Assembly: GCA_036785375.1 (NCBI GenBank)
Contig: JAWMAR010000234.1
Span: forward strand, 2,480,001-2,544,000
DNA from: Leucoraja ocellata
Taxonomy: Eukaryota
Direction of reading: 5' to 3'
DNA length: 64,000 nucleotides
The position numbers were made by a program, and so were the translations under genes. Of this stretch, positions 3,478 through 59,580 are shown in pieces. Under the pieces are notes generated by a model. The model saw only the letters and a program-made list of their open reading frames with translations, searched no databases and was not told where the DNA came from. Position 1 is the stretch's first letter. Every line of letters starts with the position of its first letter.

Positions 3478-3672
3478 AGACACATGTTGGAGTAACTCAG
3501 CGTGACAGGCACCATCCCTGGAGAGAAGGAAGGGGTGACGTTTCGGGTCGAGACCCTTCCAGGGTCACCCATTCCTTCTCTCCAGAAATACTGCCTGTCC
3601 CGCTGAGGTTCTCCAGCATTTTGCGTCGATCTTTAATGTAAACCAGCATCTTTGTGCAGTTCTTTTGTTCAC
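3478..3672. mobile_element. Penelope-derived palindromic short repeat
   Basis: TGGAGTAACTCAGCG..GTGACGTTTCGGGTCGAGACCCTT followed by its inverted copy GTCACCCATTCCTTCTCTCCAGA..CTCCAGCATTTTG. Confidence 0.8.
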
Positions 3673-4869: not shown

Positions 4870-5072
4870 AAGATGGACACAAAATACTGGAGTAACTCAG
4901 CGGGTCGGGCGGCATCTCTGGAGAAAAGGAATAGGTGATGTTTTTGGTTGAGACACTTTTTCAGACAGTTAGACCAGTCAGAAGAAAGGTCTCGACGCAA
5001 AGCATCACCTATTACTTTTTTCCAGAGATGCTGCCTGACCCGCTGAGTTACTTCAGCATTTTGTGTCCATCC
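4870..5072. mobile_element. Penelope-derived palindromic short repeat
   Basis: Inverted arms GATGGACACAAAATACTGGAGTAACTCAGCGGGTC ... GACCCGCTGAGTTACTTCAGCATTTTGTGTCCATC. Confidence 0.8.
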
Positions 5073-5424: not shown

Positions 5425-5700
5425 TCTCACTGCACACCTGGTACTACTCCTGACCCTGACTCCGGGTTGCATACCTTCTCTCATTCCTGACCCTGAGTCC
5501 AGCCTTACACCTGGCCCCCTATTCTACCCTGATCATAGCTGCTTACCTGCTTAGGTTCCCATTGTCCCAGCTTTGACTGCACACCTAGTACTATTCCAGA
5601 CCTTGACTCTGGGTGCACTCTTGGCCTTGCTCCTAGCCCCTCTGCACTAACAATATATCTGGCCCAGACATAAAGCCCCATATCTGACCCCCTGGACATA
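5425..5700. repeat. Degenerate C-rich duplicated/minisatellite-like segment
   Basis: CTGCACACCTGGTACTACTCCTGACCCTGACTCCGGGT (~5430) is repeated as CTGCACACCTAGTACTATTCCAGACCTTGACTCTGGGT (~5577). CCTGACCCTGA units recur. Confidence 0.5.
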
Positions 5701-6489
5701 ACCTATTACGTTCAAGTCCACAGGTGTTTCTCTACTGCGGTAATCTTTTATGGGGCACTTCACAGATCAAATTTTGTATAACAAAATTTGCTACATCCAT
5801 TGGCTTCCTTGTTATCTAACATGCTGGTTACTTTGTCAAAGAAGTCATCAATTGGTTGAACACAATTTCTCATCCATAAAATTAAACTCACTCAGCTGTA
5901 TAAGTATTCTGTTACCATTTCATTCATTTTCAGGACAAACTGTCCTGAAACATTTTCACCCCAATATTTTCAGTATTTTGCTGTCTTCCTCTCAGCTGGG
6001 ACTTTTCCAAAATGCAAAGTCCAATAACTATATATTTAAGCAATATTGTTTTATTAAATGTGATCTTGAGAGTACATAATATTTTCTGTGGTATTCATAA
6101 CACAACAATGATAAAAAATATCTTTATTTTGATTGCACCTACCAGCATGCATACATTATTATATTACAGTTAATATGTACTGAGGGCAATTTTATGTTCC
6201 AATACACCCCATTCCCAATTACTTTTACATTGAAATGATTGAAATCCAAGTGAAGTTTAAATGGCATCAGAAAAATAAAACCTCCGGAATGGATTATATT
6301 CATTATGTGGTTGGTTGGAGTCGGTATCAGCACAATTATTATATTAAACTTTGAATCTTCAGATGTCCTGGTTCAAGCTAAAACTGAAGACAAATAATAA
6401 CCTCCTCACACATTTCCCTGCAAGTATCTGTGTCACTCCTTTAAAATATGTCTCTTCTTTGACCAAGCTCTTAAACATCGCATCTGAAT

Positions 6490-7254
6490 CATAGAAACAT
6501 AGAAATTAGGTGCAGGAGTAGGCCATTCGGCCCTTCGAGCCTGCACCGCCATTCAATATGATCATGGCTGATCATTCAACTCAGTATCCCGTACCTGCCT
6601 TCTCTCCATACCCTCTGATCCCCTTAGCCACAAGGGCCACATCTAACTCCCCCTTAAATATAGCCAATGAACTGGCCTCAACTACCCTCTGTGGCAGAGA
6701 GTTCCAGAGATTCACCACTCTCTGTGTGAAAAAAGTTTTTCTCATCTCGGTTTTAAAGGATTTCCCCCTTATCCTTAAGCTGTGACCCCTTGTCCTGGAC
6801 TTCCCCAACATCGGGAACAATCTTCCTGCATCTAGCCTGTCCAACCCCTTAAGAATTTTGAAAGTTTCTATAAGATCCCCTCTCAATCTCCTAAATTCTA
6901 GAGAGTATAAACCAAGTCTATCCAGTCTTTCTTTATAAGACAGTCCTGACAGTCCAGGAATCAGTCTGGTGAACCTTCTCTGCACTCCCTCTATGGCAAT
7001 AATGTCCTTCCTCAGATTTGGAGACCAAAACTGTACGCAATACTCCAGGTGTGGTCACACCAAGACCCTGTACAACTGCAGTAGAACCTCCCTGCTCCTA
7101 TACTCAAATCCTTTTGCTATGAAAGCTAACATACCATTCGCTTTCTTCACTGCCTGCTGCACCTGCATGTCTACTTTCAATGACTGGTGTACCATGACAC
7201 CCAGGTCTTGCTGCATCTCCCCTTTTCCTAATCGGCCACCATTTAGATAATAGT
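6490..7254 (-). mobile_element. Young 5'-truncated CR1 LINE (RT C-terminus + 3' UTR)
   Basis: Open frame YYLNGGRLGKGEMQQDLGV...QRRFTRLIPGLSGLSYKERLDRLGLYSLEFRRLRGDLIE..WNSLPQRVVEA with a (TTTCTATG)n tail at 6490-6505. Near-identical to 34629-35146. Confidence 0.95.
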
Positions 7255-7522
7255 TTCCATCTGATTACACCCCTCCAGGATGCACCGAGCCACAGCCTGA
7301 TCCATGCCGATCACCTGGGCGAATTCGGCACAGAGACTCTCACGGCAGCGGTGCAATGCTTCCGACGCCTCCGACGGCCCGGGACTCTTGCACTGAGGTT
7401 GCTCCATGGCAGGAGCTGCAGCGTGCGACTCGCCATCCCGGAAAACACTCGCCAGCCTGGCAAACACTCGGCAGCCCCGGCTCCCCATCCGCATCTGCCC
7501 CCGCCGCTGCTTCTGCTTCCAT
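7255..7522 (-). pseudogene. TDP2: TDP2 exon-1-like fragment (N-terminal UBA-like region), frameshifted
   Basis: RESLCAEFAQVIGMDQAVARCILEGCNQME aligns with the recalled human TDP2 sequence RRLLCVEFASVASCDAAVAQCFLAENDWEME. The upstream MEAEAAAGADADGEP is in another frame. The segment is GC/CpG-rich in an AT-rich context. Confidence 0.7.
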
Positions 7523-7559
7523 CCCTCCCTCAGCCCCGGCTCTCCAACACCCGTGGCCA

Positions 7560-7704
7560 ATGCAGTTGATATGAGTTTTGAAATTTTCGTTGATCACAGA
7601 ATTTCTCAAGACAGAGCATGAGAAATTTGTGATCAGCATGAGAGTGTGAGAATTTAGCCAAATGCATGATTCTCACGCTCAATGCGTGAGAGATGGCAGC
7701 CCTG
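7560..7704 (-). mobile_element. hAT-like DNA transposon terminus
   Basis: The minus strand begins CAGGGCTGCCA (Tip100-type TIR CAGGGTTGCCA-like), followed by subterminal TCTCACGC/TCTCATGC repeats. Confidence 0.55.
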
Positions 7705-10700
7705 CCATTCATCACTTAATCATCATATTAAGCTCAATCCATATTTTCTGAACTGCCTTTTGCAATTTCATTCTCTTTAATTTTGTATCATTTTCAAAAA
7801 TAATGTCATGTAGTCAGCTTTGCATCTGGGTTAATTATGCACATTAACTATGATGGTTACAAGATTGGATCCTGTGATACATAATTATTCCGATGAGTAA
7901 TCGCCTCTTCCTTCATTTTAGGTAGTTTCTTACCTGTTCCCAGGGTTTATCTACTTTTCCCATGCTTTGAATAAGACTGAAAGCCTTTCATGTTAAGTGT
8001 TATAAAATGTCTATTTAAGTCAAGGTGCACCGGATCTTGGGAGTTCCCTTAGTTCAAGTAGACTGTCACTTCCTTAAAGTTTTTGAGCAGGTTGATCTGG
8101 CAGAAACTTCCCTGCTGGTTCTACATTGATCTCTGCTTATTAGGGTACCAGTGTCCCGATCATTCTCCAGTTTATTCCTGTCAGTTGATTCTGTACCTTC
8201 ACATGAAAAAGACAGATGGGACTGGTCTTTCCTACTTAATTATCCGTTATGAAAATGAGCATCATGTTCACCAGTTTACAATTTATTAACAGCTCCTTTC
8301 CAGTGGTCACTGTGTTCTCCCTAATGCTTTGTGGATCTTATTACTATGATAAATATCCTTCACCAGGAATTTATTTATTTTAAGCACCTATCTAGTAGTT
8401 CTCACATAAAATTAAGTAATTTGGCAAAATCGTCACCCACATTAAGAAACATGAAAAATAATAATGGTTTAGTTCAGCCCAGATTACATTCATAGGAAGA
8501 ATAATTAGGTACAGTTAATAACAGATACCCGATCCACTACATTGGGTTGTAAATGCTTGCCAAAGTTGAACATTTTGCTCACTGATTTTATTTTGGATAT
8601 TCTTAAGGAGGGTATATGGTTCACAATCTTCATCGCTGAACTCTTGGAAAATATTCTGCATTTTGCTATTATGAGCTCATTCACAATTTTTAACATTTGT
8701 GCTTTTCACTTGCTTAGTTAAACCACAACTGCCTGAAACAATGTTTTACAATTAGGTTTCACCATTTGCTGCTGGTGTTAACTTTCCCTTTTCACGTGTG
8801 TGTAACAACTTCACCCAGTAAAACCAACCTGCCATAATCACAGAATGCAATAAACTAATGGTGTGATATAGCTGTGGTCTTGCAGCAGACAATAATGCAC
8901 TAATCCTGGATGCCACCACTGTTTCTGAAAGCTGGTCCTTTTTGAGTACCAATTCAGCACAAATTTGTACAAAGATCCATAGTTGCTCTCTCCCTGTAAT
9001 TCTGTACACATATCAAACACAATCATCACAGGAGTAATATCCACACAAAACGTCAGGCCAATTGAAAGAAAACAATTAGAAAATTGTTTTGAAATGAGTT
9101 GAACACTATTGTTGAATATGTGAATCAATTTTCTTGTATTAATCCCAGGTTATGGATATCTTGTTGGAAATTAAAGCATCAAGGATATGGGAAAAAGCTG
9201 TTCAAAGCAGATCACTCCTGTGCTTCCTATGTACAACGTGGCATTCTCAGACTCAGTGGGCCGAAGGGCCTGTTTCCAGGCTGTATCTCTGAACGAAACT
9301 AAACTAAAAGTGGTACGGTTCCTTTACTGTTGTAATGTTACAATGCTTATTATGATCAATCGATACTTGCAAAGCAAGAGCCAAGATGCTACCCAGTGGT
9401 AAAAGCTAATTGCAGCAATTTATAAAGAAGAATCTTAAAATAAAATATTTCTTGATATTCAGTACACATTCTCTGGAAAATTGATATGATTATTCTATCC
9501 ATCTTAATAAAACAAATTGGATAAGTTTCTGACATTGAGAATACAATGAGCTATAATAAATAAAGAAGGCTATCTGCTGTGGTGGCAATTCTGAACTATA
9601 TCTTGCACAAATCAATATGCCCTCAACAGCTTTGAACTAGCTCTTTCCCATCATGTGAATGTAGGATATTCAGACAAACTGCTCTGACCCAACCAGGTAA
9701 TATAAAAAATTGCTCACAACTGCTTCTATTTTTCAATTCCATTTCTGAAAATGTACAAAAAGTGTACTTTTGATTTTGAGAGGAATTATGAAATGTTTAA
9801 AAGCACATGCTACCAAAAAGAGCACTTTAGTTGACAACTATTTCTTTAAGAACTATTTAACGGGATTTAACTAATTATTCAACAAGGTGTATCATGTCTC
9901 TAAATACCCTGTGTGTGTGGTATTGCCTATGCAAAAGGTGCAGTTGTGAAAGTGGCAAGTTGCACCAATCGCAGAGGGTTAACAAATGATATCAATACAT
10001 TCCTCTCGACCTTCCCTTTCAATATCGCTGCTTTCTTTGAATCTGTTGGTTAATGAAATTGTACGTTTTTCACCTTTCTTTCACAAAGTATTGTTATGGT
10101 GATTTTAAGTATCCAAAGCAATAGTGAAAGCTCACTCTTAAACCATATATTTTTAACAAAAGCTATAAAGTACTTGTATTTTTAGACATAAACAGGAGAA
10201 AATTCAAGATGTGGGGAGAAAAAAATATGGATCTCATAGATGCGATTGACAGTGAATACACATGTTGATTAACACTGAACCACAAAACACCAAACAAAAG
10301 CAAGAAGTATTAAACACAAATAAACAACATTTAGGTTAAAATCACAATACATATCTAAAGCTTGAAGACAGTAATTGGCTGAGCACACAGAGTTTGTTTG
10401 TTCAGTTGTCACAAAACTAAAGAATCCTGATCATATCATAGATCACTAGATATCGTTATAAAGGTTCCTACTTGACATTGTCCACACATTCTCTGTCATT
10501 CATGTTTCAGATATAAATCAAGCATTCTTATTTAGTAGAACAATGGTCACAATTAAAGCCACATGGCCTAACGTCATACAACCTTACTTCAAAGCAAATA
10601 AAATAACCTTTCTTTTACAACCAACGTAACTGAAGCATTAACATTAGAATTAATAATATAGTCAGGTTACAAATCCTAAAAAAGATTAAATGGTCACGTG

Positions 10701-11254: not shown

Positions 11255-11392
11255 ATTTAAGAAGGAACTGCAGATGCTGGAAAATCGAAGGTAGACAAAA
11301 ATGCTGGAGAAACTCAGCGGGTGAGGAGGCATCTATGGAGCTCCATCGAAGCTGCCTCACCCGCTGAGTTTCTCCAGCATTTTTGTCTACCC
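11255..11392. mobile_element. Penelope-derived palindromic short repeat
   Basis: GGTAGACAAAAATGCTGGAGAAACTCAGCGGGTGAGG and its inverted copy, flanked by AAGAAC(A)TTTTAATA duplication. Confidence 0.85.
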
Positions 11393-20927: not shown

Positions 20928-21249
20928 CTAGGAAACAAACCTTCGCTCATCAGCGAATTGCAACTTCACTGTACTAAACAACCACTTTAAAGCCAAAATG
21001 GGAAAAATACGGAAAATTTTGACATAAAGCAGAGAAACAAACAAAATTAAGCACGAAAGATGGAAACTACAGCAGGCGCTGCCATCTTTCGAAAGTGAGG
21101 CAGCAGCGATTTTCATACACATTGTTTGCAAATATAAACTTAGTTGGCTATGGCATTCATATTAGTGTAAGAAACTGAAAATACAGCCCATCATTACAGT
21201 ATTGCATAAAAAGAACAGTGGATGAGGGTGAGAGAGAGAGTGCAAGAGA

Positions 21250-21387
21250 NNNNNNNNNNNNNNNNNNNNNNNNNNNNNNNNNNNNNNNNNNNNNNNNNNN
21301 NNNNNNNNNNNNNNNNNNNNNNNNNNNNNNNNNNNNNNNNNNNNNNNNNNNNNNNNNNNNNNNNNNNNNNNNNNNNNNNNNNNNNNN
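21250..21387. other. Assembly gap (138 N) within GA-rich microsatellite
   Basis: Run of N flanked by (GA)n on both sides. Confidence 0.99.
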
Positions 21388-21436
21388 GACCGTGAGAGAG
21401 AGAAAGAAAAAGAGAGCGAGAGAGGGAGATGCTTAC

Positions 21437-21502
21437 CCCCAAAAAGTATAAGATATCGTCAGGGACAGAAATGGGAAAGCATTCACCTTGTATCCTGCCA
21501 TC
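21437..21502 (-). ncRNA. Predicted exon B (66 nt)
   Basis: Branch-like ctgac, acceptor ttttcttgtctgcattacag|GATGGCAGG and donor TTTGGGG|gtaagc. Confidence 0.7.
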
Positions 21503-22674
21503 CTGTAATGCAGACAAGAAAACAGTCAGCTCCATTTTTACAAGTACTTACAGGCCTGAGTAATGGAAGGCGGTCCCTACCTAGCAACCACTTCCAGTTT
21601 TCATCTGCAGGCTTTCCCTGCCATCCGTGCCCCCAACTCCCGCCCCCCCCCCCCCCCCCCAACCACCTTCAGTTGCCAGGCTAGTGACAATGGGAGGCTG
21701 AAGGGTAGCTGGAAACCAGTGTGTTAAACTCGTCTGGTAGTTAACAAGTCTTTGAATGAAGAATGTTAGCAAACAGACAAACAGCATGTCTGATGCATGC
21801 TAATAACATTGCTGGTCCAGCCTCACAACCAAGCCTATGAATTATTCAACAGACAGAAGCGACCACCACCGCCCCCACCACCATCCACCCCATCAACATG
21901 CTCCCCCCCCCCCACCCCACAATTCAAATACCAGCAGTGAGGACAAAAGTATCTTCATACATTTTTCAAAAAACAGCTCTGTCTATTTTCCCTTCTTACT
22001 TCCAAATTGAAAGTGAAACTAACATGGCTTAACTCAAATTATTTATTACTTTCATTCCAGAGTATCATCAATAATCCTTTTCGCACTGATCTGAATATTT
22101 TCTTTCACAGCCTATTTTATGTCTTTTGTCTGAAGTTGGCACCTGTCCCAACCAGCGCTCTGCTGCACACCCTGTTCCCTTCCAATCAGTATTTGGAAAA
22201 AAAAATGAGGACCCAGAAGTGCAGCTATTTCAACACAGCCATCGGCAGATCCACATCTAACGCTGTCCTTTCATGCACAGATGCGCAGTATAATCAGAAG
22301 ACCAAGCTGTTTTCCTCTGAGTGGCAGTATACTCTCGTATTTTGTAGCAAGCATCACCATAACCCATGCAGGATTAAGTAGGCACACAGTAAAATTCAAT
22401 ACTCAAATCAGGAAAGATTTATTCATTTCAATAACACATTACAGCTGCACTAACCCTCACGTTACTTCACAGAAAGCCAAAAAGAAAGGAAAATATCATT
22501 CAACCAAAACAATGTGAACCTCATCTTCTGCCAACCAGTCACAATAAAGAAACAATAAACAAAAATCCAGTTTGTCGTGAGGAGAAATCTTCTGGTCTGG
22601 CAAAGGCTGTCTGAGGGGGAGGCCCTTGCTACAGGAACAGAAGCAGTATAAGCATAGCTCAGTCGCCCTCTCAC

Positions 22675-22950
22675 CAGAGTGACTGCAACTGTCTATCAAA
22701 GAGGAAAGAGCTGTACCGAGAGGCCTGAGCTGATGATGAAATAGAGGCATGTTCTCTCCCCCACCACCCCCAACGGCACCCCCCGCCACTCTCCCCCTCC
22801 TTCTGCCCCCTGTGTGAGAGCTAGCTACTTTCATCACACACACAGCCATGAATCGTGCACCAACGATCTTCTGCCTGAGCTGGACCGCACTGCGCCAGCG
22901 CACACACTCGCCTCCTTGCAGCCTCCACCCCTCCTTCCCTCAAACGATTG
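22675..22950 (-). ncRNA. Predicted first exon A / promoter-proximal GC-rich segment (5' limit approximate)
   Basis: Local GC/CpG-rich island (GGAGGCGAGTGTGTGCGCTGGCGCAGTGCGG) ending in the donor CACTCTG|gtgaga. No clear upstream acceptor. Confidence 0.5.
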
Positions 22951-23927
22951 CACACTCTTTTGAGCCAGGTAATGAATTAAGACACGAGACGGATTTCTTC
23001 AATCTTTAAAAAACACATCATTCTCAATGCAGCCTTACTAATTAACCTTTTACTTTCTTTCTATAGCTGTACCCACAGCAATCGCAAGAGATAATGCGCT
23101 ATTTTAAAAAACAATTTGGAAAAAGAAAGTCCTCGAAGATTATATATCAAAGCACATTACTACAAAGCATCATTATTTAGCCTTGAGAATCAATATAGAA
23201 AAGTAAATCCACACTTAATTGAATAATTTTGTTCTCATGTCCCTGCTCTTAACCAGCTGCTCAACCAAGTTAAAACTGTTCGACCCTTACAACTATCTTG
23301 GCATGGAGTCAAAGGCTGATAAGCATTTGGGCGAGACAGCAACTGCTGTGCTGGAAGAAAAACAGCTGCCATGATTGCTGTTAGGTTGAAAATGTGCAGA
23401 AAGCAAATCTGGCTCTAAATACTGCACATAAAATGCTGCTGGACTCCACTAATCAGTACATTTTGGAACCTATTTTTCAGACGATTTCAGCAAAGTTTCC
23501 ATTTTTTGCTGTGCTTTTAAACTTTGCCTGTGCAGCGTGCTTCCCTCCCTCCCCGCCCGTCCCCTCCCCCCCAACAGTAACCTCAAGCAAACTTAAGGAA
23601 TCGTGCCAAAAGTCACGTTGCAGCTTTAAATGCATTTGTTGGGAGTGTCCTAGGATTCGAGCTTCGCTTCGCCAGCTAACTCAAATTATAATTTTAGCTG
23701 GCTATCGTGAATTGAAAGTGGTATTTTTCTAAGTAATATTTTTATGATCAACATATGGTAGATTACTGTAACTCTATTGTAAAACAACTTCCTGCCCCTT
23801 TTGGCACAAGTTCGAGAAGCTGCTCGAATAAGTTCAGAGTACATATTCCTACCCCCTTCCACCAGCATCACCCCGCCCACTCTACGCCTGCTGCTGCTGC
23901 TGAAAGACCGAGGCAAACTTTTTAACA

Positions 23928-23930
<3 letters not shown>

Positions 23931-23964
<34 letters not shown>

Positions 23965-24022
23965 TCTCGCACATCCTCTCTTTCTCTCCCTCTCTTTCCC
24001 TCCCTCTCTTTCTCTCCCTCTC
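23931..24022. repeat. (CT)n/(GA)n polypyrimidine microsatellite
   Basis: About 90 bp of almost pure C/T on the plus strand. Confidence 0.95.
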
Positions 24023-24237
24023 GCTGTGTGCTTTGGTAGATTTAGAAGAAGAAGAACAGTTTACATGGACAGCTCTATTGTTGAGCATGTAGCAACCGAA
24101 GGAAGTCAAAAGTTCAACTCGACAACTTGTGAATCTAAAAAAAGGTGGGGTTTATTTTTGAACGCTAGCTCTGATAGCGCAGTTACGTTTGCTGGCTTTC
24201 ACTCCTGCATTCCCGCCCTGGAGACCGTTCCACTCAC

Positions 24238-24545
24238 TCATGGCCTACAGAAAGAAGAGGCACCTCAGACACTTGCTTCTTTTAAAAAACTAACCTGCCT
24301 CTTTTTCTGACCACAGGGTATTCCATTCAAGGTGGGTCATCAAAGTCCCACTGGTAAAATGGATATCGCTTGTGTTCTCACTAGACTATATGCCACAACA
24401 AAGCAAAACACACAGAAAAGGCCTCCACAAGCTCTCTTAGCAACAACATTTCTTGATACGTCTGCTTTGGCATAGATCAGCCTTTCTATTTGGCCAAGTA
24501 TCCTTTGCGTCACATCTCGCCATTTCTTTTGACCAATAGAAAACT
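24238..24545 (-). promoter_or_regulatory. Candidate upstream promoter and alternative first exon
   Basis: CCAAT box at 24533-24537, CRE/CEBP-like TGACGCAA on the minus strand at 24505-24512, an NFI-like TTGGCCAA, and a downstream donor CCATGA|gtgagtg at 24238. Confidence 0.4.
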
Positions 24546-27500
24546 TCGTGATGTAAATTTTTTTTTTTAATTGCCCCTCCCTCTCTAATTGATTGTGATA
24601 TGTAAAATAATTCAATGAACTTTAACCAAAGAGAAACTTTAAAAAAAAGAATAACAGACATTGGTTTCAGTAATGGAACTTTCTGGGTTAAAAACAAAAC
24701 AACCTTAGCGCTCAGCCACTCCGGGTGCTGCACCTGAGGAGGGACACATTTGTTCAAATTCTGCATTGAAAGGAACACATTCTTCTCCTCCTCTAGCCTG
24801 TTAGCTTACTGTAATGAAATCACGCATCAAAATAGTCTGAAAGCTTTCGAACACTCATTGCCAGAAGTGCAAAGATTGGAATTATTCACGTCATATCAAA
24901 GTGCTTGGAAATTTAAATTTCAAATGGGTTATTCTTCCACCGATTAAAGTGTGCTTCTCAGCTCTTATTTTATACTTTTTGATATTGACATCTTCTAGAA
25001 AATATTATTATATTGAAAAAATATTTTAAAATAGGTTCAGCTAATTTGTTTTTATTTAAAAATTACATAATTAATTTCAGATGATATAATCCTTATCACG
25101 AGTTGAAATTTAAAATGTTCTTTAAGATGCCATTTTGGAAAGATTCAAGGTTTGAATACCTTGTATATCAATTTGGAATAAACCAAATAAACTGGGGGGT
25201 TTTTCCAACTGCTTTTAAATTCCTTTCATGCAATTACTGTGGAATATCCTTTGAAATTTTGGGAATTAGCCGATTTCTATATTTGTAAATTTAGAAAACT
25301 AATTTTAAGTATAACCAATTATCCATTCTGACACATGTATTTCTATGTCTACTAATACATGAATTGTATTTATTTTAAAATAAGATTTGCATAAATTCAT
25401 ATTCAAAGATTTACCATAACTGCCTAGAGAATGTTTTAACAGTTTAGAAAGTGGCAATCATGAAATATGAAAGAAACGTGTCAATTTGTGTGCTGTGGAA
25501 TATATCTAAAAGTTGCATATTTATTATTCTGTGACACCAAAATTCTACCCCATATGCCACAATAATTTTACATCGTTATTCCTAAGGATAGGATATTATT
25601 GTCAAGAAGACAAATGTCGGCCTGGATTTTCACATTTATCAAAATTAGACAAAAAAATGTAAATAACAGACGGTGGTGTATTCAAAATAAAAAAAAGTAG
25701 ATGTTCTAGAATTAATAGGTGTATAGGCATCTCCTTTAAAATTTCTCCCTTGTCCCTTTTTATTTTTAGGCATATTGTAAATGAATCAATGTTGCTATAT
25801 TTCCAACTCCCTTTATTTCGCCATTAAGAGCTGATCCTGAACAGGTTGCTTTTCTCAGAGATGGTAGGTTCAATGTATAATTTTGTTTAAAATCTGATCT
25901 GAAGATCCTGGTACGAATGATATTTGGATTTTTACTGTACATACACGATTTATTTTGTGAACAGAAAACTTGCTTTTTTCCCCCTCCAGTTCTTCTAGAG
26001 AAAATAAATTATTATTTTTTACAATTTATTGCAAGTGATTTGTTTTAAGAAACAATGCTTTTTTCTTATTCTTTAACGTGAAATTTACAGCATTGGGCAC
26101 TGTGATACTACCCAATGCGGTTGGGCACTGTCAAACTATCCAATGTCAGAAATGAAAGACACATCTGAATGATAACAGTACTTAAGATTAAAAAATCTCA
26201 TAAACTCGGCCAAAATATGTTCTTCAAAAACTGAAATGCTGCATTTCAAAAAGCAATCACATGGAAAATCACCCAATGATTTAAAAATTCTTTTTTCCCC
26301 CATTCATAATTTAAGACGACATCTTTAAACTATCTATTAGAGTAAACGCAGTTTTTATTTTCACTTTAGTGAGATCTTTAACAGTGATTCTTTAATAAAA
26401 GCTTCCATGGACAATGTTGGATTGTACAATTTTATACAAATTTTACTCTTTAAGCATTGAAATGACGAAAGTATCTGATCATGACCAGCAGCATAGCACC
26501 AATTAGCAAGTAAGAACAATTTGTGAACATTTTATATCTTTCTTCTTTAACAATTTTCTGCGCTACAATTATATTAAAAGCTCATACTTATTGGTGCTCC
26601 TGAAAAAATGTGACTTTGCTTAGGCCATACAAACCCTCAGAGTACTATTTTTTTTTTAAGTTAAGTAATTTAAACTTTTAAATGTGCAATGCAGCACCAA
26701 GTGTTTGATCAGCAATAGAAACTCTCTGCTCTTTATGGAATGTTTAAGTTCAATGCACAATTTTCAAAACCACACACTATCTTACGCAAGTATAAATAAC
26801 TAAAGTTTGATAAGAGAATTTCCCTACTCTGAGGGTTAACCAATCTCATGGTTTTTTTTCCTCCATGTGATGACCTGCAGGAGGTTCATACCTTTCACCA
26901 TTCCGTGGGCCAGAGCTACACAGAACATTCTACATTCTTTTTTTTTAATGCAAAATTTGACTTCAATAAAATCTTAACAGTGTCACTGGACACACACTAA
27001 AGAATCACCCATAAATGCATGCTACTCCAGTTAAAAAATGCAACTGCACAGTGAATCCAGGATATTTCCAACAATGAATTTCCAACATTTTTTTAATTAT
27101 TAGTTTGTTCTAATAAAAAAAAACTAATGTTCAGACTATTTAGGTAGTTGTAAATCCATTAATTGATTTAATTTTTCACAGCTTTATTTTTTCAAAAATA
27201 GTATGATTAAGTCCTGTGGTGCTTTCTCACAATGAATGCATGGGTACTGATGCTACTATAGAATGGTGTACCACCATAATGTGGCCAACTGAAGTTAGGT
27301 GCAGCAACATTTTCTTGACATTTCACACTGGCAAATATGGCACAATTTTCCAAATGTGATAAAGGAATTGGCAATGTGCTTGCACGCAAAAATTCACATT
27401 TGGAATGCACCATTCACCTTTTTTAAATTAAGGTTTCAATGGAAAGCACAGTGCCACAAGTACAATAGCTTAAACTTCAACAAAATGAGGTGTCGTTGGA

Positions 27501-34483: not shown

Positions 34484-35813
34484 TCAAGTTCAAGTTCACA
34501 TTTATTGCCACATGCACCAGTTAAGGTACAGTGGAATTTGATTTACCATGCAAGCACACAATCAAAAAGAGCACAATACACCATAGACTAGAACATCAAC
34601 ATTCACCACAGTGGAATCAACATTCTTCACATTATTGCCATAGAGGGAGTGCAGAGAAGGTTCACCAGACTGATTCCTGGGATGTCAGGACTGTCTTATG
34701 AAGAAAGACTGGATAGACTTGGTTTATACTCTCTAGAATTTAGGAGATTGAGAGGGGATCTTATAGAAACTTACAAAATTCTTAAGGGGTTGGACAGGCT
34801 AGATGCAGGAAGATTGTTCCCGATGTTGGGGAAGTCCAGGACAAAGGGTCACAGCTTAAGGATAAGGGGGAAATCCTTTAAAACCGAGATGAAAAAAACT
34901 TTTGTCACACAGAGTGGTGAATCTCTGGAACTCTCTGCCACAGAGGGTAGTTGAGGCCACTTCATTGGCTATATTTAAGAGGGAGTTAGATGTGGCCCTT
35001 GTGGCTAAGGGGATCAGGGGGTATGGAGAGAAGGCAGGTACGGGATACTGAGTTGGATGATCAGCCATGATCATATTGAATGGCGGTGCAGGCTCGAAGG
35101 GCCGAATGGCCTACTCCTGCACTTAATTTCTATGTTTCTATGTTTCACTGTGGTGGAAGGCAATAACTTTCAGTCAGTCCTCGTCCTTTGTTCATCCGTG
35201 TTCGGGGCCATGAACCCTCCGCTGTTGCCGCTACGGACGACCCGATGTATAGGCCCTCTCGTCGGGATGCTCATAACTCCGACGTCGGGACGGACATTCC
35301 ACGGCTTGGAGATCCCGAATTGGCCGCTTCCTACCGGAGACCGCGGCTTCACTATGTTATAGGCCGCAGGCCTGCGGTCGGAGCTCTTCTCCGGCGATCC
35401 CCGATGAGGGATCCCAGACTCTGCGATGGAAAGTCCACGCCACACCTGCGGCTAGAAGCTCTGCAGACCGCGGCTTCAGGATGTTATAGTCCACAGGCCA
35501 ACGATCGGAGCACTTCTTCTGCCGATCCCCGGCAAGGGACCGCCCAGCTCCGCTATGGAAAGTCTGCGCTGTGCCCGCTGCTGAAGCTCCGAGCCTGACT
35601 CTGGGAGGGACCCCACCAATCCAAGCTGCGAGGTGCGAGGGAGGGCGAAAAGACTAGGAGAAAAGTCGCATTCCACCGAGGTAAGTGACTGAAAAACAGT
35701 CCCCCCCCTCTCCCCACTAAAACACACTAAACACACTTTTAGACATACTAAAAACAAAAAAAAGTCGAAAGGACGAACAACTGCTGGCGAGGCTGCCGGC
35801 TCGTGGCGCCACC
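34484..35813 (-). mobile_element. Non-autonomous Rex1/L2-tailed GC-rich retroelement, split by CR1
   Basis: The minus strand starts GGTGGCGCCACGAGCCGGCAGCCTCGCC and ends AATAAATGTGAACTTGAACTTGAA. The body is CpG-rich. Confidence 0.6.
34629..35146 (+). mobile_element. Young CR1 LINE 3' end
   Basis: QRRFTRLIPGMSGLSYEERLDRLGLYSLEFRRLRGDLIETYKILKG with a (TTTCTATG)n tail. Confidence 0.95.
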
Positions 35814-47059: not shown

Positions 47060-48020
47060 TTGGCATTGATATTAATTTATTATTGTCATGTGTACCAAGA
47101 AACGGTGAAAAACTCTACATGAGATAGGAACAGCAAAAATCCATGTCTATGTCTATGAACCAGACTGCAGGATATAATGTTACAGCTACAGAAAAAGTGC
47201 AGATTAAAAAAAAAGTGCAATGAGGTAGACTGGGAGATCAGGAACACATCTTAGCCTATTACAGGTCCATCGAAGAGTCTGAGAACAACAGAGAACTCTG
47301 CTGCTCTTGAATCTGGTGATCCATGCTTTCAAGCTTTTATATGTTTTTTCCTAATGGGAAAGGGGAGAAGAGGGAATGACTGAGGTGTGTGTGGTCCTAT
47401 ATTATGTTGGCTGTTTTCCCTACATAGTTTGGCATAGATAGAATCAATGGGGTGGGCACAGTCCTCATCACAATCAAAGGTATCTACATGAAGCACTGTT
47501 TCAAGAAGGAGGCAGCTTTCATCAAGGATCCCCACTATCTGGGCCACACACTCTTCTTTCTACTACTGTCAAGTAGGAGATACAGAAGTCTAAAGTCAAA
47601 CACAAACATATTCAGGAACAGCTACTTTCCTACAAGTATTAGGTTCTTGAATCAACCTGCAGAACCCTAATCTTACCTCAGCAACAGACTACAACCAACT
47701 CTTGAACTACCTTAGACTTGTTCTTTTTCATGTTTTGTAATTTTTTTTTCTTTGTACTGTCTTGCACAATACATAATTGATGTATAATTTATGTTTTTAT
47801 GTGTTGTCTGAGTCTATGTGCCTGTGATGCAATATGGTTTTCATTGTACTTGCAGGAGACAGTAAACTCGTCCTGACTTGACTTAATAAATTGTCGGTTA
47901 TATTTACATCGAGGAACTTGCAGCTCTCAGTCGTCTCCATCTCAGCACCATTGATGTAGACTGGGACATTTACTCCACCCCATTTTCTGAAGTCGATGAC
48001 TAGCTCTTACATTTTGCTGA
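47060..48020. mobile_element. Rex1/L2-like LINE fragments in both orientations
   Basis: ORF 47452-47670 IKDPHYLGHTLFFLLLSSRRYRSLKSNTNIFRNSYFPTSIRFLN (Rex1-type C-terminus, +) is embedded in a minus-strand copy whose tail is at ~47070. Confidence 0.75.
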
Positions 48021-55730: not shown

Positions 55731-57046
55731 GTAAATAAAGCATTTGACTCATTAAAACCTTAATGCAGTCTGAAAATAATTTATACAATGTAACTTGCAT
55801 TATACTTATCTCCCTTTCATATAGCCATACAATCTTCTTTGCAATGAATGGGCTACAGATGAATATAGAATAGGCCTACAGTAGCTTTAATCAAATGCAG
55901 TTTCCAAACAGATTTCCCAGTGTTAGTAATGGAGTAACTGACAGATTTGCTGGCTTGAATCTGTTAACAAGTTTGGAAATTCCTCATTCAGAAAGGCACA
56001 TGCCAAACTCCTGAACCCGCTGGCATTTTCATGAGTGAAAATGCAATTGCTGAGAACAAAACAAATCCATGATGGATATATACAGTTAATTGGCCAAAAA
56101 TCCAAATATCCTTGCAGTAAAACAATTATAAATGGTAATTGGTCACATTCTATTCTATTGTTTGAAAACTCCCTACCTTGCATGCTTATATTGGAAGAAT
56201 GAATTCATCTCAAAATTTAAAATATTAAAAGTATTGGATTTACAGTACGAGTTCCTATATAAATGTAATTCTTTATTCTCTCCTTCCACGGTTGTGTTTG
56301 AAGAGCATTTGCCAAGTAGCCATTTTATGGGAGCACGTCGTCATATAAGCATGACATTCCTTGGATCCTGTAGCACAACAGACCTTCCAAAAATAAATTT
56401 GCATCAAACTCTCAAGTTGATGCTTGGTACTTCCGAACGCATTGATAAAACGACGGCGGAACATTTTTGCATTTATCAACCAGCAAATGAATAAACCAAG
56501 AAATCTGAAGTTCTTAGACTACAAATACAGTTACACATTATAATAAATTCACAAAGTAGTTGAAAAATGCAAAGAGTACAGTTGTTCATTAATGTGTGCA
56601 GCAAAATGCCCGGTCTCGAACAAGCCAGCAGTATTAAATGGATATTAACTAAAAGAAGCATCTGAGAGCATCGAGGAGATCGAAAATAGGCTCTGGCAAC
56701 ACATGACAGAATCTAGCGTGGTGAGTCAAAACAAAGGAACCATTTTTCAAAAAGAAGCGATGAGTAAGATACAGAAACCTGCACTGATTCTTGCCTGCAG
56801 CTGGAAGAATCATCAGACTACGAAACAGGTCAGGAGTCTCTTCTTCCTTGTTTGAAAGAAATTAAGTGTCAAACATTCAAACCGTTTTTACATTTTAAAA
56901 ATTGCAACTTAATACTACTGAAAAATGAGAAACTGAATTTTGCTCAGTTAGCCAAATTGTAGAAGGATATGGGCAAAAAATGAATGTCTTAAACGTTGCT
57001 TAACAGAATGGAGATTAATAGCTAGAAGACATGGAGAGAAGAAAGA

Positions 57047-57290
57047 AGGTACACAAAAATGCTGGAGAAACTCAGCGGGTGCAGCAGCATCTATGGAGCA
57101 AAGGAAATAGGCGACGTTTCGGGCCGAAACCCTTCTTCAGACTGAAGAAGGGTTTATCAGTCTGAAGAAGGGTTTCGGCCCGAAACGTCGCCTATTTCCA
57201 TCGCTCCATAGATGCTGCTGCACCCGCTGAGTTTCTCCAGCATTTTTGTGTACCTTCAATCTTCCAGCATCTGCAGTTCCTTCTTGAACA
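57047..57290. mobile_element. Complete palindromic Penelope-derived element with hammerhead-type core on each strand
   Basis: About 100-bp near-perfect inverted arms; CTGAAGA-A-GGGT-TTCG-GCCC-GAAAC-GTC core at 57162-57189; 18-bp duplication ACATGGAGAGAAGAAAGA. Confidence 0.85.
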
Positions 57291-57595: not shown

Positions 57596-58255
57596 TTAAA
57601 AAAAAATTATACAAATACTTTTATTTAAAAAAAACCCATATATATATATATATACACAAATTAGCACAATCAAAGACTGCCTATGCTGACAGTTTTACAA
57701 AAAAATGATCATCAAATTAATATAACGCCAACTTTATCAACAAAACACTCAACCTCCCGCGGCGACCAGCGTTCACGGGAAGGCCTCCAGAGTCCCCATG
57801 GACACCGCGTGTTCCCTCTCCAAGGACACGCGGGCACGGACGTAGGCCCGGAAAAGGGGCAGGCAGTCAACACTGGTGCGGACGTCGACTACCCACTGCC
57901 TGGACCCGCGAATGGCCACCTTGGCTGGGCCCAGGAGCAGACGGACAGGGAAATCCCCCCCCACCCTCCCGACCTACTCCCCTCTGTACCGGGTGCCCAA
58001 ATATCTGGAGTGTGGGGCTGAAATGTAGCCAAAACTTGAGGAGCAGACCCTTCAGATAGTTAAATAGGGGCTGCAACCTCTCACACTCCTTGTACAAATG
58101 GAAGGCGGTCTCTTCCTCGCCGCAGAAGTGACAGGCAGCTGGCGAATCCGTGAACCAGCTCAAGTACCTGTTACAGGCCACAGCCATGTGCAACACTCTC
58201 CATCCCAGGTCCCCAATGTAAAGAGGCAGGACTCCCTTATAGAGAGACAAGTCTA
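57596..58255 (-). mobile_element. L1/Tx1-clade LINE 3' end (zf-RVT domain), inserted in a Rex1-like copy
   Basis: GDLGWRVLHMAVACNRYLSWFTDSPAACHFCGEEETAFHLYKECERLQPLF (CCHC zinc knuckle), with the AATAAA-containing 3' end at ~57620. Confidence 0.9.
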
Positions 58256-58257
58256 CC

Positions 58258-58745
58258 ATGGGCACAGCCATTGCCTTCCTTGAAAACAGCTACTTGACTA
58301 AGTGGCATCTGTCATCAAGGATCCCCACCATCCGCGTCATGCCATTTTCTTGGTGCTACCGTCAGGCAGCAAATACAGAAGCCTGAAGTTGCATACCATC
58401 AGGTTCAGGTACAACATCTTTCCTAAAACTATCAGGTTCTTGAAACAATCCACACAATCCTAATTCTACCTCTGCAAGAAACCACTGCAGATGACCTCTT
58501 GCATTATCATGGACTAGTTTTTCTAATCGTGTTTTCTAATCTTGTTTTTCTGATAATGCCCTGTGTTTTTGCACTTTCAAAATTGTGTACTATCTTGCAG
58601 AATTTTTATGTGTAATTTACTGTATAAGTTATGTATAGTTTAAGCTTTTATGTGTTTGTTTGAATCTATGTGATGCTGTACTTTTCACTGTACTTGTACT
58701 TCACTCTACTGGTGCATATGACAATAAACTCAACTCGACTTATCA
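58258..58745 (+). mobile_element. Rex1/L2-like LINE 3' end (continues from ~57545-57595)
   Basis: VIKDPHHPRHAIFLVLPSGSKYRSLK..RFRYNIFPKTIRFL with the tail CATATGACAATAAACTCAACTCGACT. Confidence 0.8.
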
Positions 58746-59251: not shown

Positions 59252-59410
59252 ATATAGAAACATAGAAAATAGGTGCAGGAGTAGGCCATTCAGCCCTTCG
59301 AGCCTGCACCGCCATTCAATATGATCATGGCTGATCATCCAACTCAGTATCATGTTCCTGCCTTCTCTCCATACCCCCTGTTCCCTTTAGCCACAAGGGC
59401 CACATCTAAC
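59252..59410 (-). mobile_element. Young CR1 3' end (~160 bp)
   Basis: Near-identical to 6490-6648. Confidence 0.92.
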
Positions 59411-59490
59411 TCACAAGGGCCACATCTAACTCACAAGGGCCACATCTAACACACAAGGGCCACATCTAACACACAAGGGCCACATCTAAC
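59391..59490. repeat. Five tandem copies of a 20-bp CR1-derived unit
   Basis: (N)CACAAGGGCCACATCTAAC x5 with no spacers. Confidence 0.97.
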
Positions 59491-59580
59491 ATGTTGGGCC
59501 AAAGGATCTGCTTCCATGCTGCATGGCTGTATGACTCAATGACTCTCTTTGCGACTCCAGACTAACATTCCAGCCCATTA

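Follow-up and report, generated by a model that had tools for sequence, protein, structure and literature searches.

A composite of three DNA pieces was analysed in a 64-kb stretch of the genome of the skate Leucoraja ocellata (assembly GCA_036785375.1, contig JAWMAR010000234.1, positions 2,480,001 to 2,544,000 of the forward strand), which is called the window below. The three pieces are real and follow one another on the minus strand: a hAT-like transposon end at 7704-7571, a fragment of the first exon of the DNA-repair gene TDP2 at 7522-7273, and a CR1-type long interspersed nuclear element (LINE) at 7254-6490. The explanation that we favour, tentatively, is that the first two pieces are the dead left half of an old multicopy hAT element carrying part of TDP2, and that the adjacent young CR1 was inserted later and separately. 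Its core, a gene-carrying hAT (Pack-hAT), is common to a rival in which the CR1 insertion itself caused the deletion, and we regard this shared core as probable.

The TDP2 origin of the middle piece was supported by several searches. By tblastn, the TDP2 protein of Leucoraja erinacea matched 7522-7273 with 76.6% identity over 47 residues (E 6e-16), with the homology spread over two frames, and a relative found by protein search, P0001, matched it with 85% identity over 61 residues and 72% over 25 residues (E 6e-31). The better of two PDB matches was the UBA chain of TDP2, 6q00_B (E 0.016). The Pfam family UBA_4 matched the fragment below its cut-off (E 0.0012), and the ESM Atlas returned generic UBA clusters only, scoring at most 0.82. 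A scan of bacterial and archaeal genomes gave one locus from 384 pattern matches (46% identity over 24 residues), which was rejected as chance. The TDP2 homology amounts to 250 nt of coding sequence whose parent gene is identifiable. The named relatives are all skate TDP2 proteins (Leucoraja erinacea XP_055510903.1, Amblyraja radiata XP_032869397.1 and Rhinoraja longicauda XP_078283247.1), and the fragment is 71-80% identical to native skate TDP2 over the aligned columns.

Compared with vertebrate TDP2 (the skate proteins and the UBA structure 6q00), the fragment has the N-terminal linker and the UBA-like helices at this level of identity, whereas the phosphodiesterase domain and the last 7 codons of the UBA exon are missing and the reading frame is shifted. 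The frame offset corresponds to an excess of exactly 19 nt, and this excess coincides with a 19-bp tandem duplication at 7428-7477, which therefore accounts for the frameshift. No other TDP2 exon, including the catalytic-domain exon, was found by tblastn in the 64 kb. The fragment is a pseudo-exon and not a gene. Its GC content is 0.655 and its observed/expected (o/e) CpG ratio is 0.82, against 0.38 and 0.38 for the window. The flanks of the fragment are CpG-poor, with o/e ratios of 0.26 on the 5' side, which is unlike a CpG-island promoter, and 0.16 on the other. A sequence-only reading of this DNA had described a GC-rich, CpG-rich and frameshifted TDP2-like start here, and these three points were all confirmed.

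The same reading had let exon 1 end at an apparent Met-Glu ("ME") and join the LINE seamlessly at that point, which did not hold. Three of the four exon-1-only relatives recovered by protein searches (P0001, P0008 and P0006) match TDP2 through ...WLLE and then diverge with V-S or V-G, and the three named skate proteins continue as WLLE-RALNS or WVLE-RALNS. Because valine needs GT at this position, exon 1 appears to run into intron 1 in P0001, P0006 and P0008, and the exon-1 donor of skate TDP2 would sit after ...DNQWLLE. The homology in the window stops at ..ARCILE (7273), 7 codons (21 nt) short of this presumed donor. The "ME" lies inside the 18 nt that separate the homology from the LINE and that hold a candidate target-site duplication (TSD); as an end of exon 1 in skates it was rejected. 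When the 18 nt before the LINE were compared with a degenerate profile of the true exon end, the score was -8.6 (global p 0.08, local p 0.045); the preceding 18 nt, used as positive control, scored 26.5 (p 0.0003). A search of the window for a source of the 18-nt spacer gave only 11- and 15-mers at chance level. In the 3' flank, neither the exon end nor the intron read-through left a recognisable trace in the first 120 nt (p 0.78), and over the following 3 kb no score exceeded the null maximum.

The LINE, which we take to be a CR1, is young, as had been proposed: its 3' end is identical at 506 of 521 positions to a sibling copy at 34629-35147, so that the two are about 3% apart, and the window holds more short copies. 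The LINE frame has 515 relatives at E ≤ 0.001, the best being 93% identical. A premature stop lies at 7057-7055, and the open reading frame (ORF) ends at 6581. No Pfam match was obtained in the LINE piece, and in the relative P0020 the RVT_1 match ends upstream of the region aligned to it, as LINE relatives carry RVT_1 upstream; the reverse transcriptase core is thus absent from this copy. Of the reverse transcriptase and 3' tail that had been described, the 3' tail stands; the core is absent, and one premature stop was found. In its ORF2 C-terminal region, 3' untranslated region (UTR), tandem-repeat tail, several copies in the window, short candidate TSD and extra 5' nucleotides, the piece resembles elasmobranch CR1-group LINEs, and nothing in it is out of the ordinary for them. 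CR1-group elements are reported to make up 22-34% of elasmobranch genomes (PMC13343379), and HER1 is a named shark and ray LINE (PMC3747384).

The sequence at 7266-7258 recurs right after the LINE tail at 6489-6481 (9 nt with 1 mismatch, 7 nt exact). Among 5000 random position pairs, 0.9% reached this score, and the proportion was 0.3%, 0.5% and 1.4% when the allowed offset was at most 3, 6 and 10 nt, respectively. No comparable duplication brackets the whole composite, for which the best was 5 nt with 1 mismatch at offsets 4-5, leaving room for a very short TSD. The 9-nt duplication is a candidate TSD of the LINE alone, at the long end of the known range: TSDs of the L2/CR1 clades are described as peaking at 3-5 bp within a range of 1-9 bp, with those of ZfL2-1 reaching 8-9 bp (PMC4245944). 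The same source describes extra 5' nucleotides as common in zebrafish L2/CR1-group elements, in about half of the genomic ZfL2-2 copies.

Three observations were made on other LINE-derived sequences. At the sibling LINE (34629-35142, plus strand), the filler at the 5' junction matches over 10 nt exactly, or about 15 nt with gaps (34600-34628 against 35143-35162), and looks templated. A short LINE 3' tail at 59254-59491 (minus strand) has as its 5' end a 5-fold 20-bp tandem repeat of LINE-derived sequence, which suggests slippage in reverse transcription or later. The butyrophilin-like relative P0024 (Ig, PRY, SPRY) holds, within residues ~230-286, about 50 residues that are 80% identical to the LINE frame; this stretch would be an exonised piece of the LINE or else an artefact of the gene model.

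One model proposed earlier holds that splicing joined the exon-1 donor of TDP2 in a Pack-hAT transcript to a cryptic CR1 acceptor and that the chimera was retrotransposed by the CR1 machinery. The TDP2 and LINE parts do lie on the same strand. Because the residue before the YY site is D or G in all seven readable relatives (an eighth, P0024, was mis-anchored by the pattern and not counted), a G would precede the LINE start, which is one requirement of an AG acceptor. With GAA as the presumed E codon, the six nucleotides just ahead of the LINE match an L-E ending at 5 of 6 positions, and the spacer as a whole is marginally like the exon end (p 0.045-0.08). However, the base before that G is unreadable from protein, and the codons possible for the CR1 residues further upstream, K-N-R-K/E-(V/A/T), contain no more than 4 pyrimidines in their 15 nt, which makes a polypyrimidine tract impossible. 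Thus, of the claim that CR1 resumes just after an AG, the G was supported and the rest of an acceptor was not. The W-L-L-E exon end is missing, and reconciling the spacer with it needs two indels plus substitutions in 21 nt beside a cleanly matching control. In addition, the candidate TSD lies around the LINE alone and no comparable one was found around the chimera, a retrocopy would need to start exactly at the first base of the terminal inverted repeat (TIR), and the join is out of frame, with a stop after 4 codons. The sequence-only reading had itself named a junction away from the exon-1 donor as refuting this model, and the junction lies 7 codons short of that donor. We consider the model very unlikely because of this off-donor junction and the LINE-only duplication, together with the missing polypyrimidine tract and the out-of-frame join. 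A retrotransposed hybrid is probably a less apt description of the locus than a relic of a rare gene-carrying transposon family.

On the other side of the TDP2 fragment, the subterminal TCTCA repeats are a stronger sign of a hAT element than the terminal 11-mer. TCTCA occurs six times in 134 nt (4 forward, 2 inverted) against 0.38 expected, in agreement with the subterminal repeats first noticed here, and only 3 of 475 tiled windows contain at least 6 copies of any 5-mer. The terminal 11-mer, CAGGGCTGCCA at 7704-7694 (minus strand), is the sole exact match in the 64 kb. At 2 mismatches it has 23 matches in the window, against 23.15 expected, which is chance level. CAGGG at 7704 fits YARNG, but YARNG occurs 29.5 times per kb in the window and is weak alone. 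Given the chance-level matches and the frequent YARNG, the 11-mer by itself is weak evidence of a TIR. The TIR claimed earlier is therefore retained as an exact 11-mer with a YARNG start, and it lacks a partner in the 64 kb. The 11-mer presumably resembles known hAT TIR types, a likeness that a literature search did not confirm.

Self-BLAST of the window gave no second copy of the terminus or of the TDP2 piece. The 8-mer left of the terminus recurs within the window only at 26307, 28590 and 55844, and the right element end is absent; the focal copy is at best half an element. YARNG termini and an 8-bp TSD are given as traits of non-autonomous hAT elements (PMC3014272), and the terminal regions of Tol2, a hAT, as spanning 150-200 bp including subterminal repeats (PMC8151067). 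Like these elements, the terminus here starts with YARNG, and the next 130 nt or so contain short repeats that run both ways. In contrast to them, a paired TIR, an 8-bp TSD and a partner transposase were not seen, and none of the anole hAT TIRs listed in PMC3014272 matches the terminus. Three flank bases and the putative TIR (7694-7707) form a perfect palindrome with 6-bp arms and a 2-nt centre, probably by chance.

Evidence on other copies of the TDP2-carrying element came from predicted proteins. The four exon-1-only ORFs lie on contigs of 702-4646 nt, and a profile-based protein search, in which the top 8000 candidates were scored, added no relatives. The window piece is 77-89% identical to the four, that is, 11-23% divergent at the amino acid level. 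At least one other copy seems to have the inner subterminal zone, because residues 1-29 of P0008, upstream of the ATG, match the read-through of 7609-7523 at 22 of 29 positions (score 85, null maximum 41). CpG transitions accounted for 8 of 18 single-base-reachable changes in the relatives and for 3 of 23 in the native proteins (Fisher p 0.029), and the excess in the relatives remained at binomial p ≤ 4e-4 with transitions weighted up to 8-fold. In this test the window codons served as template, with 20 distinct changes in the relatives (2 unreachable) and 28 in the natives (5 unreachable), and 7 columns in which the window departs from the majority were omitted. Judging from the alignment, three of the window's own changes are CpG-type as well. 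P0001 and P0006 agree at 25 of 31 positions in the UBA core and at 21 of 28 in the intron read-through; two natives agree at 29 of 31. The near-equal decay of core and intron, together with the CpG changes, would be the pattern of methylated, unselected repeats. The relatives, the shared upstream sequence and the CpG decay point to a multicopy Pack-hAT family. The Pack-hAT idea of the sequence-only reading thus gained exon-1-only relatives, shared terminus-side sequence and CpG decay, and its partner TIR was not found in the window.

On this basis, the following course of events may be proposed. In a batoid ancestor, a non-autonomous hAT would have captured, at the DNA level, the 5' UTR and exon 1 of TDP2 together with the beginning of intron 1 and been copied by transposase in trans. 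Capture through mRNA is disfavoured because the intron donor is kept in relatives: three of the four read through past exon 1 into intron-like sequence, the boundary itself being absent from the focal copy. One copy would then have landed here, been methylated and decayed, and the 19-bp duplication and point changes are its visible marks. A deletion would next have taken away the last 7 codons of the exon and all that followed, up to and including the right TIR; that this part is lost is evident, when it was lost is conjectural. Finally, if the candidate TSD is accepted, target-primed reverse transcription would have placed a 5'-truncated CR1, with 3 extra nt, some 15 nt beyond the breakpoint. 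This order, in which the element was truncated first and the CR1 came later, is a third one beside the two proposed earlier, and it is favoured because of the candidate TSD, which had been missed. The two parts differ in age: the LINE is 3% from its sibling, whereas the TDP2 piece has diverged by 11-23% (amino acids) from its relatives, and 3 of 19 positions differ between the units of its duplication. The composite is most likely inert, because it has a single transposon end, lacks a splice donor, is frameshifted and runs into a stop after 4 codons of the LINE. The description of it as a mobile first exon does not apply to the focal copy, which has one end only.

Several observations weigh against this reading. 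No partner TIR was found in the 64 kb beyond chance at 2 mismatches in 11 nt, and none at up to 8 mismatches in 25 nt. As no second TIR, 8-bp TSD or copy number was seen, the hAT identity depends on one end and a presumed likeness to known hAT TIR types. P0001 has none of its 31 core residues changed and 8 of 53 in the linker, a selection-like distribution, so this relative may be the native gene of another species; the relatives in general could be native exon-1/intron-1 read-throughs. A tree places the five copies on one side of a branch, with weak support (77/88). A rival explanation has no transposon capture. Break repair or a small segmental duplication would have made a DNA-level duplicate comprising the native TDP2 promoter, the 5' UTR and a portion of exon 1; the repeats would be native to the promoter or come from a hAT relic residing there, and the relatives would be native read-throughs from other batoids. 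Besides the unchanged core of P0001, this rival accommodates the one TIR-like end with no TSD seen, the recovery of only four relatives by protein searches and the chance frequency of YARNG starts. It does not fit the higher CpG-type decay in the relatives than in the natives, nor the 6 and 3 changes that P0006 and P0008, respectively, carry in the 31-residue UBA core. No full-length TDP2 with the linker type of the copies was found among 11 candidates scored. Moreover, at a GC content of 0.41 the 134 nt upstream are richer in AT; they form no CpG island and have bidirectional short repeats as in hAT subterminal regions. We therefore judge a duplicate of this kind unlikely.

The remaining objections concern the candidate TSD and the spacer. 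The duplication exceeds the 3-5-bp peak of its LINE group, contains 1 mismatch and was found post hoc. The sibling LINE (plus strand) has no TSD and carries an inverted near-copy of its own 3' flank at its 5' junction, so that templated filler could mimic a TSD. The LINE 5' end lies just 18 nt from the break in homology, which is a coincidence if the CR1 came separately. The spacer itself is marginally similar to the actual end of the exon (local p 0.045). The proximity of the LINE to the break would be explained by another model from the earlier reading, in which the CR1 entered an intact Pack-hAT and thereby truncated the target site over a long distance, so that exon end, intron piece and right TIR were lost; the 18-nt spacer would then be filler for which the 3' flank served in part as template. 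Long truncations of the target have occasionally been recorded for zebrafish L2-type LINEs (PMC4245944), the sibling LINE shows templated filler at its 5' junction, and all of the evidence for a Pack-hAT family applies equally. Yet a same-orientation duplication of 7-9 nt at both junctions is the ordinary signature of a TSD and needs no deletion, and the 3' flank without a remnant of the exon end or intron is neutral to slightly adverse. This model is possible, though rather improbable, and an earlier truncation followed by a separate CR1 insertion is still the order we prefer.

A survey of 100 vertebrate genomes described 370 gene-fragment-carrying elements of this kind (Pack-TIRs), of which 208 are hAT and 13.4% have exonic cargo (PMC8277862). 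Of 281 unique cases, 4 were multicopy Pack-TIRs, one of them a frog hAT with a 5' UTR as cargo; multicopy Pack-TIRs favoured GC-rich captures (PMC8277862). The statement that such a first exon is unusual in vertebrates was therefore too strong given 208 hAT Pack-TIRs, but multicopy ones are rare. The elephant shark, given as the only cartilaginous fish in that survey, had no Pack-TIRs, and no skate is named among its genomes (PMC8277862). The closest known system is Pack-hAT-N8_XT of the western clawed frog, with the CAPSL 5' UTR (Tan et al. 2021, PMC8277862), which likewise has a hAT-type end beside a ~300-bp GC-rich 5' fragment of a host gene copied at the DNA level. Unlike it, the element here carries a coding first exon, including start codon and UBA domain, with the intron-1 donor in relatives, and its host is a cartilaginous fish. 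Measured against the Pack-TIR definition of Tan et al. (2021), the parent gene is identifiable and the internal sequence (250 nt of TDP2) is within 100-5000 bp, but both TIR ends are not present. Because of its one end, its missing TSD and its ~20-29% protein divergence from the natives, the focal copy would fail the pipeline as described in PMC8277862. It works like a Pack-hAT relic and is not by itself a Pack-TIR member, as it has one end instead of two.

The terms "TDP2" and "skate" were absent from 12 term-searched supplementary files of PMC8277862, whose main table gives coordinates only, so that it may contain a TDP2 case from another species. Neither a transposon capture of TDP2 exon 1 nor a hAT or CR1 study of transposable elements in skate (Leucoraja) was found in the full-text literature, and no Pack-hAT case in a cartilaginous fish was found in the papers searched. 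The element may already exist as a repeat consensus in Repbase or Dfam.

Table 1. Features of the TDP2-containing composite; positions are those of the window.
Feature	Position	Strand	Basis
3' copy of the candidate CR1 TSD	6481..6489	-	match to 7258..7266
5'-truncated young CR1-type LINE: ORF2 C-terminal region past the reverse transcriptase core, 3' UTR, short 8-bp repeat tail	6490..7254	-	sibling copy, relatives, translation
3 extra nt at the LINE 5' junction, giving the E of the apparent "ME" (putative assignment)	7255..7257	-
5' copy of the candidate CR1 TSD (9 nt, 1 mismatch; 7 exact), giving the M of the apparent "ME"	7258..7266	-	null test
6 nt past clear TDP2 homology: putative flank beyond the old deletion breakpoint, or filler	7267..7272	-
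TDP2 exon-1 coding fragment (ATG, linker, most of the UBA-like domain, ending ..ARCILE; frameshifted, decayed)	7273..7522	-	tblastn, protein search, PDB, Pfam
19-bp tandem duplication causing the frameshift	7428..7477	-	units 16/19 identical
87 nt upstream of the ATG common to relative P0008 (inner subterminal repeat and 5'-UTR-like GC-rich stretch)	7523..7609	-	in-frame read-through match
Subterminal zone with 6 TCTCA-core repeats in both orientations	7571..7693	-	repeat count against expectation
Putative left TIR of a non-autonomous hAT	7694..7704	-	begins YARNG

The window as a whole is AT-rich (GC 0.38, CpG o/e 0.38) and rich in repeats, with a single N gap. Rfam gave no matches and ARAGORN no genes over the window. 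For Pfam, 98 of 229 stop-to-stop frames of at least 62 residues were scanned, namely those that start below 32 kb less 11 that lie over the element; no host gene was identified in these 98 frames, and their sole match, DUF6556 (E 8e-4), was below the cut-off and rejected. Matches to Diedel, PHD_NSD and KA1 were rejected on the same ground. The region 21000-25000 is promoter-like with few repeats and contains a long TC microsatellite (23931-24022), CCAAT-type motifs near 24530 and the N gap (21250-21387); it may hold the 5' end of a host gene, with no identifying Pfam match above the cut-off. A CpG-rich element at 35151-35800, which starts about 10-20 nt past the sibling LINE tail, is the largest CpG island of the window and has an internal direct repeat of ~125 bp (35338-35461 against 35465-35589, 77%).

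Several further repeats were noticed. About 900 nt past the tail of the focal LINE, a 39-nt repeat lies in three copies (67-87% identity) at 5429-5614, within a GC-richer patch. A family of palindromic (head-to-head) repeats of 100-230 bp, 77-93% self-complementary, occurs at 57038-57264, 4872-5071, 11290-11391, 3484-3619 and in more partial copies, and resembles miniature inverted-repeat transposable elements or paired ends of short interspersed elements. At 57867-58289 (minus strand) lies a GC-rich piece of another non-long-terminal-repeat element, with related DNA at 47511-47852 and 58304-58696; Pfam zf-RVT matched this fragment below the cut-off (E 9e-4).

In conclusion, the finding is real but more ordinary than had been proposed, and is probably the dead half of a gene-carrying hAT beside an unrelated young LINE. 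This copy is almost certainly inert, and the retrotransposed-chimera mechanism is not supported. For annotation, our results advise caution, as TDP2-like UBA fragments in skate assemblies may be repeats. The lasting value of the locus is as a lead to a possible multicopy TDP2-exon-1 family in skates. In its boldest form, to which we would give little weight, skates would carry a new multicopy Pack-hAT family with a portable TDP2 first exon (5' UTR, start codon, ubiquitin-binding UBA domain and 5' splice donor), of which the focal copy is a broken member and whose intact copies might act as mobile first exons, adding a UBA tag to downstream host exons by splicing, or give rise to antisense or small RNAs that tune TDP2. 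If such a family is true, it would add a rare multicopy Pack-TIR to those of vertebrates, from a lineage with none in the survey, and its coding first exon with a splice donor would be ready raw material for exon shuffling.

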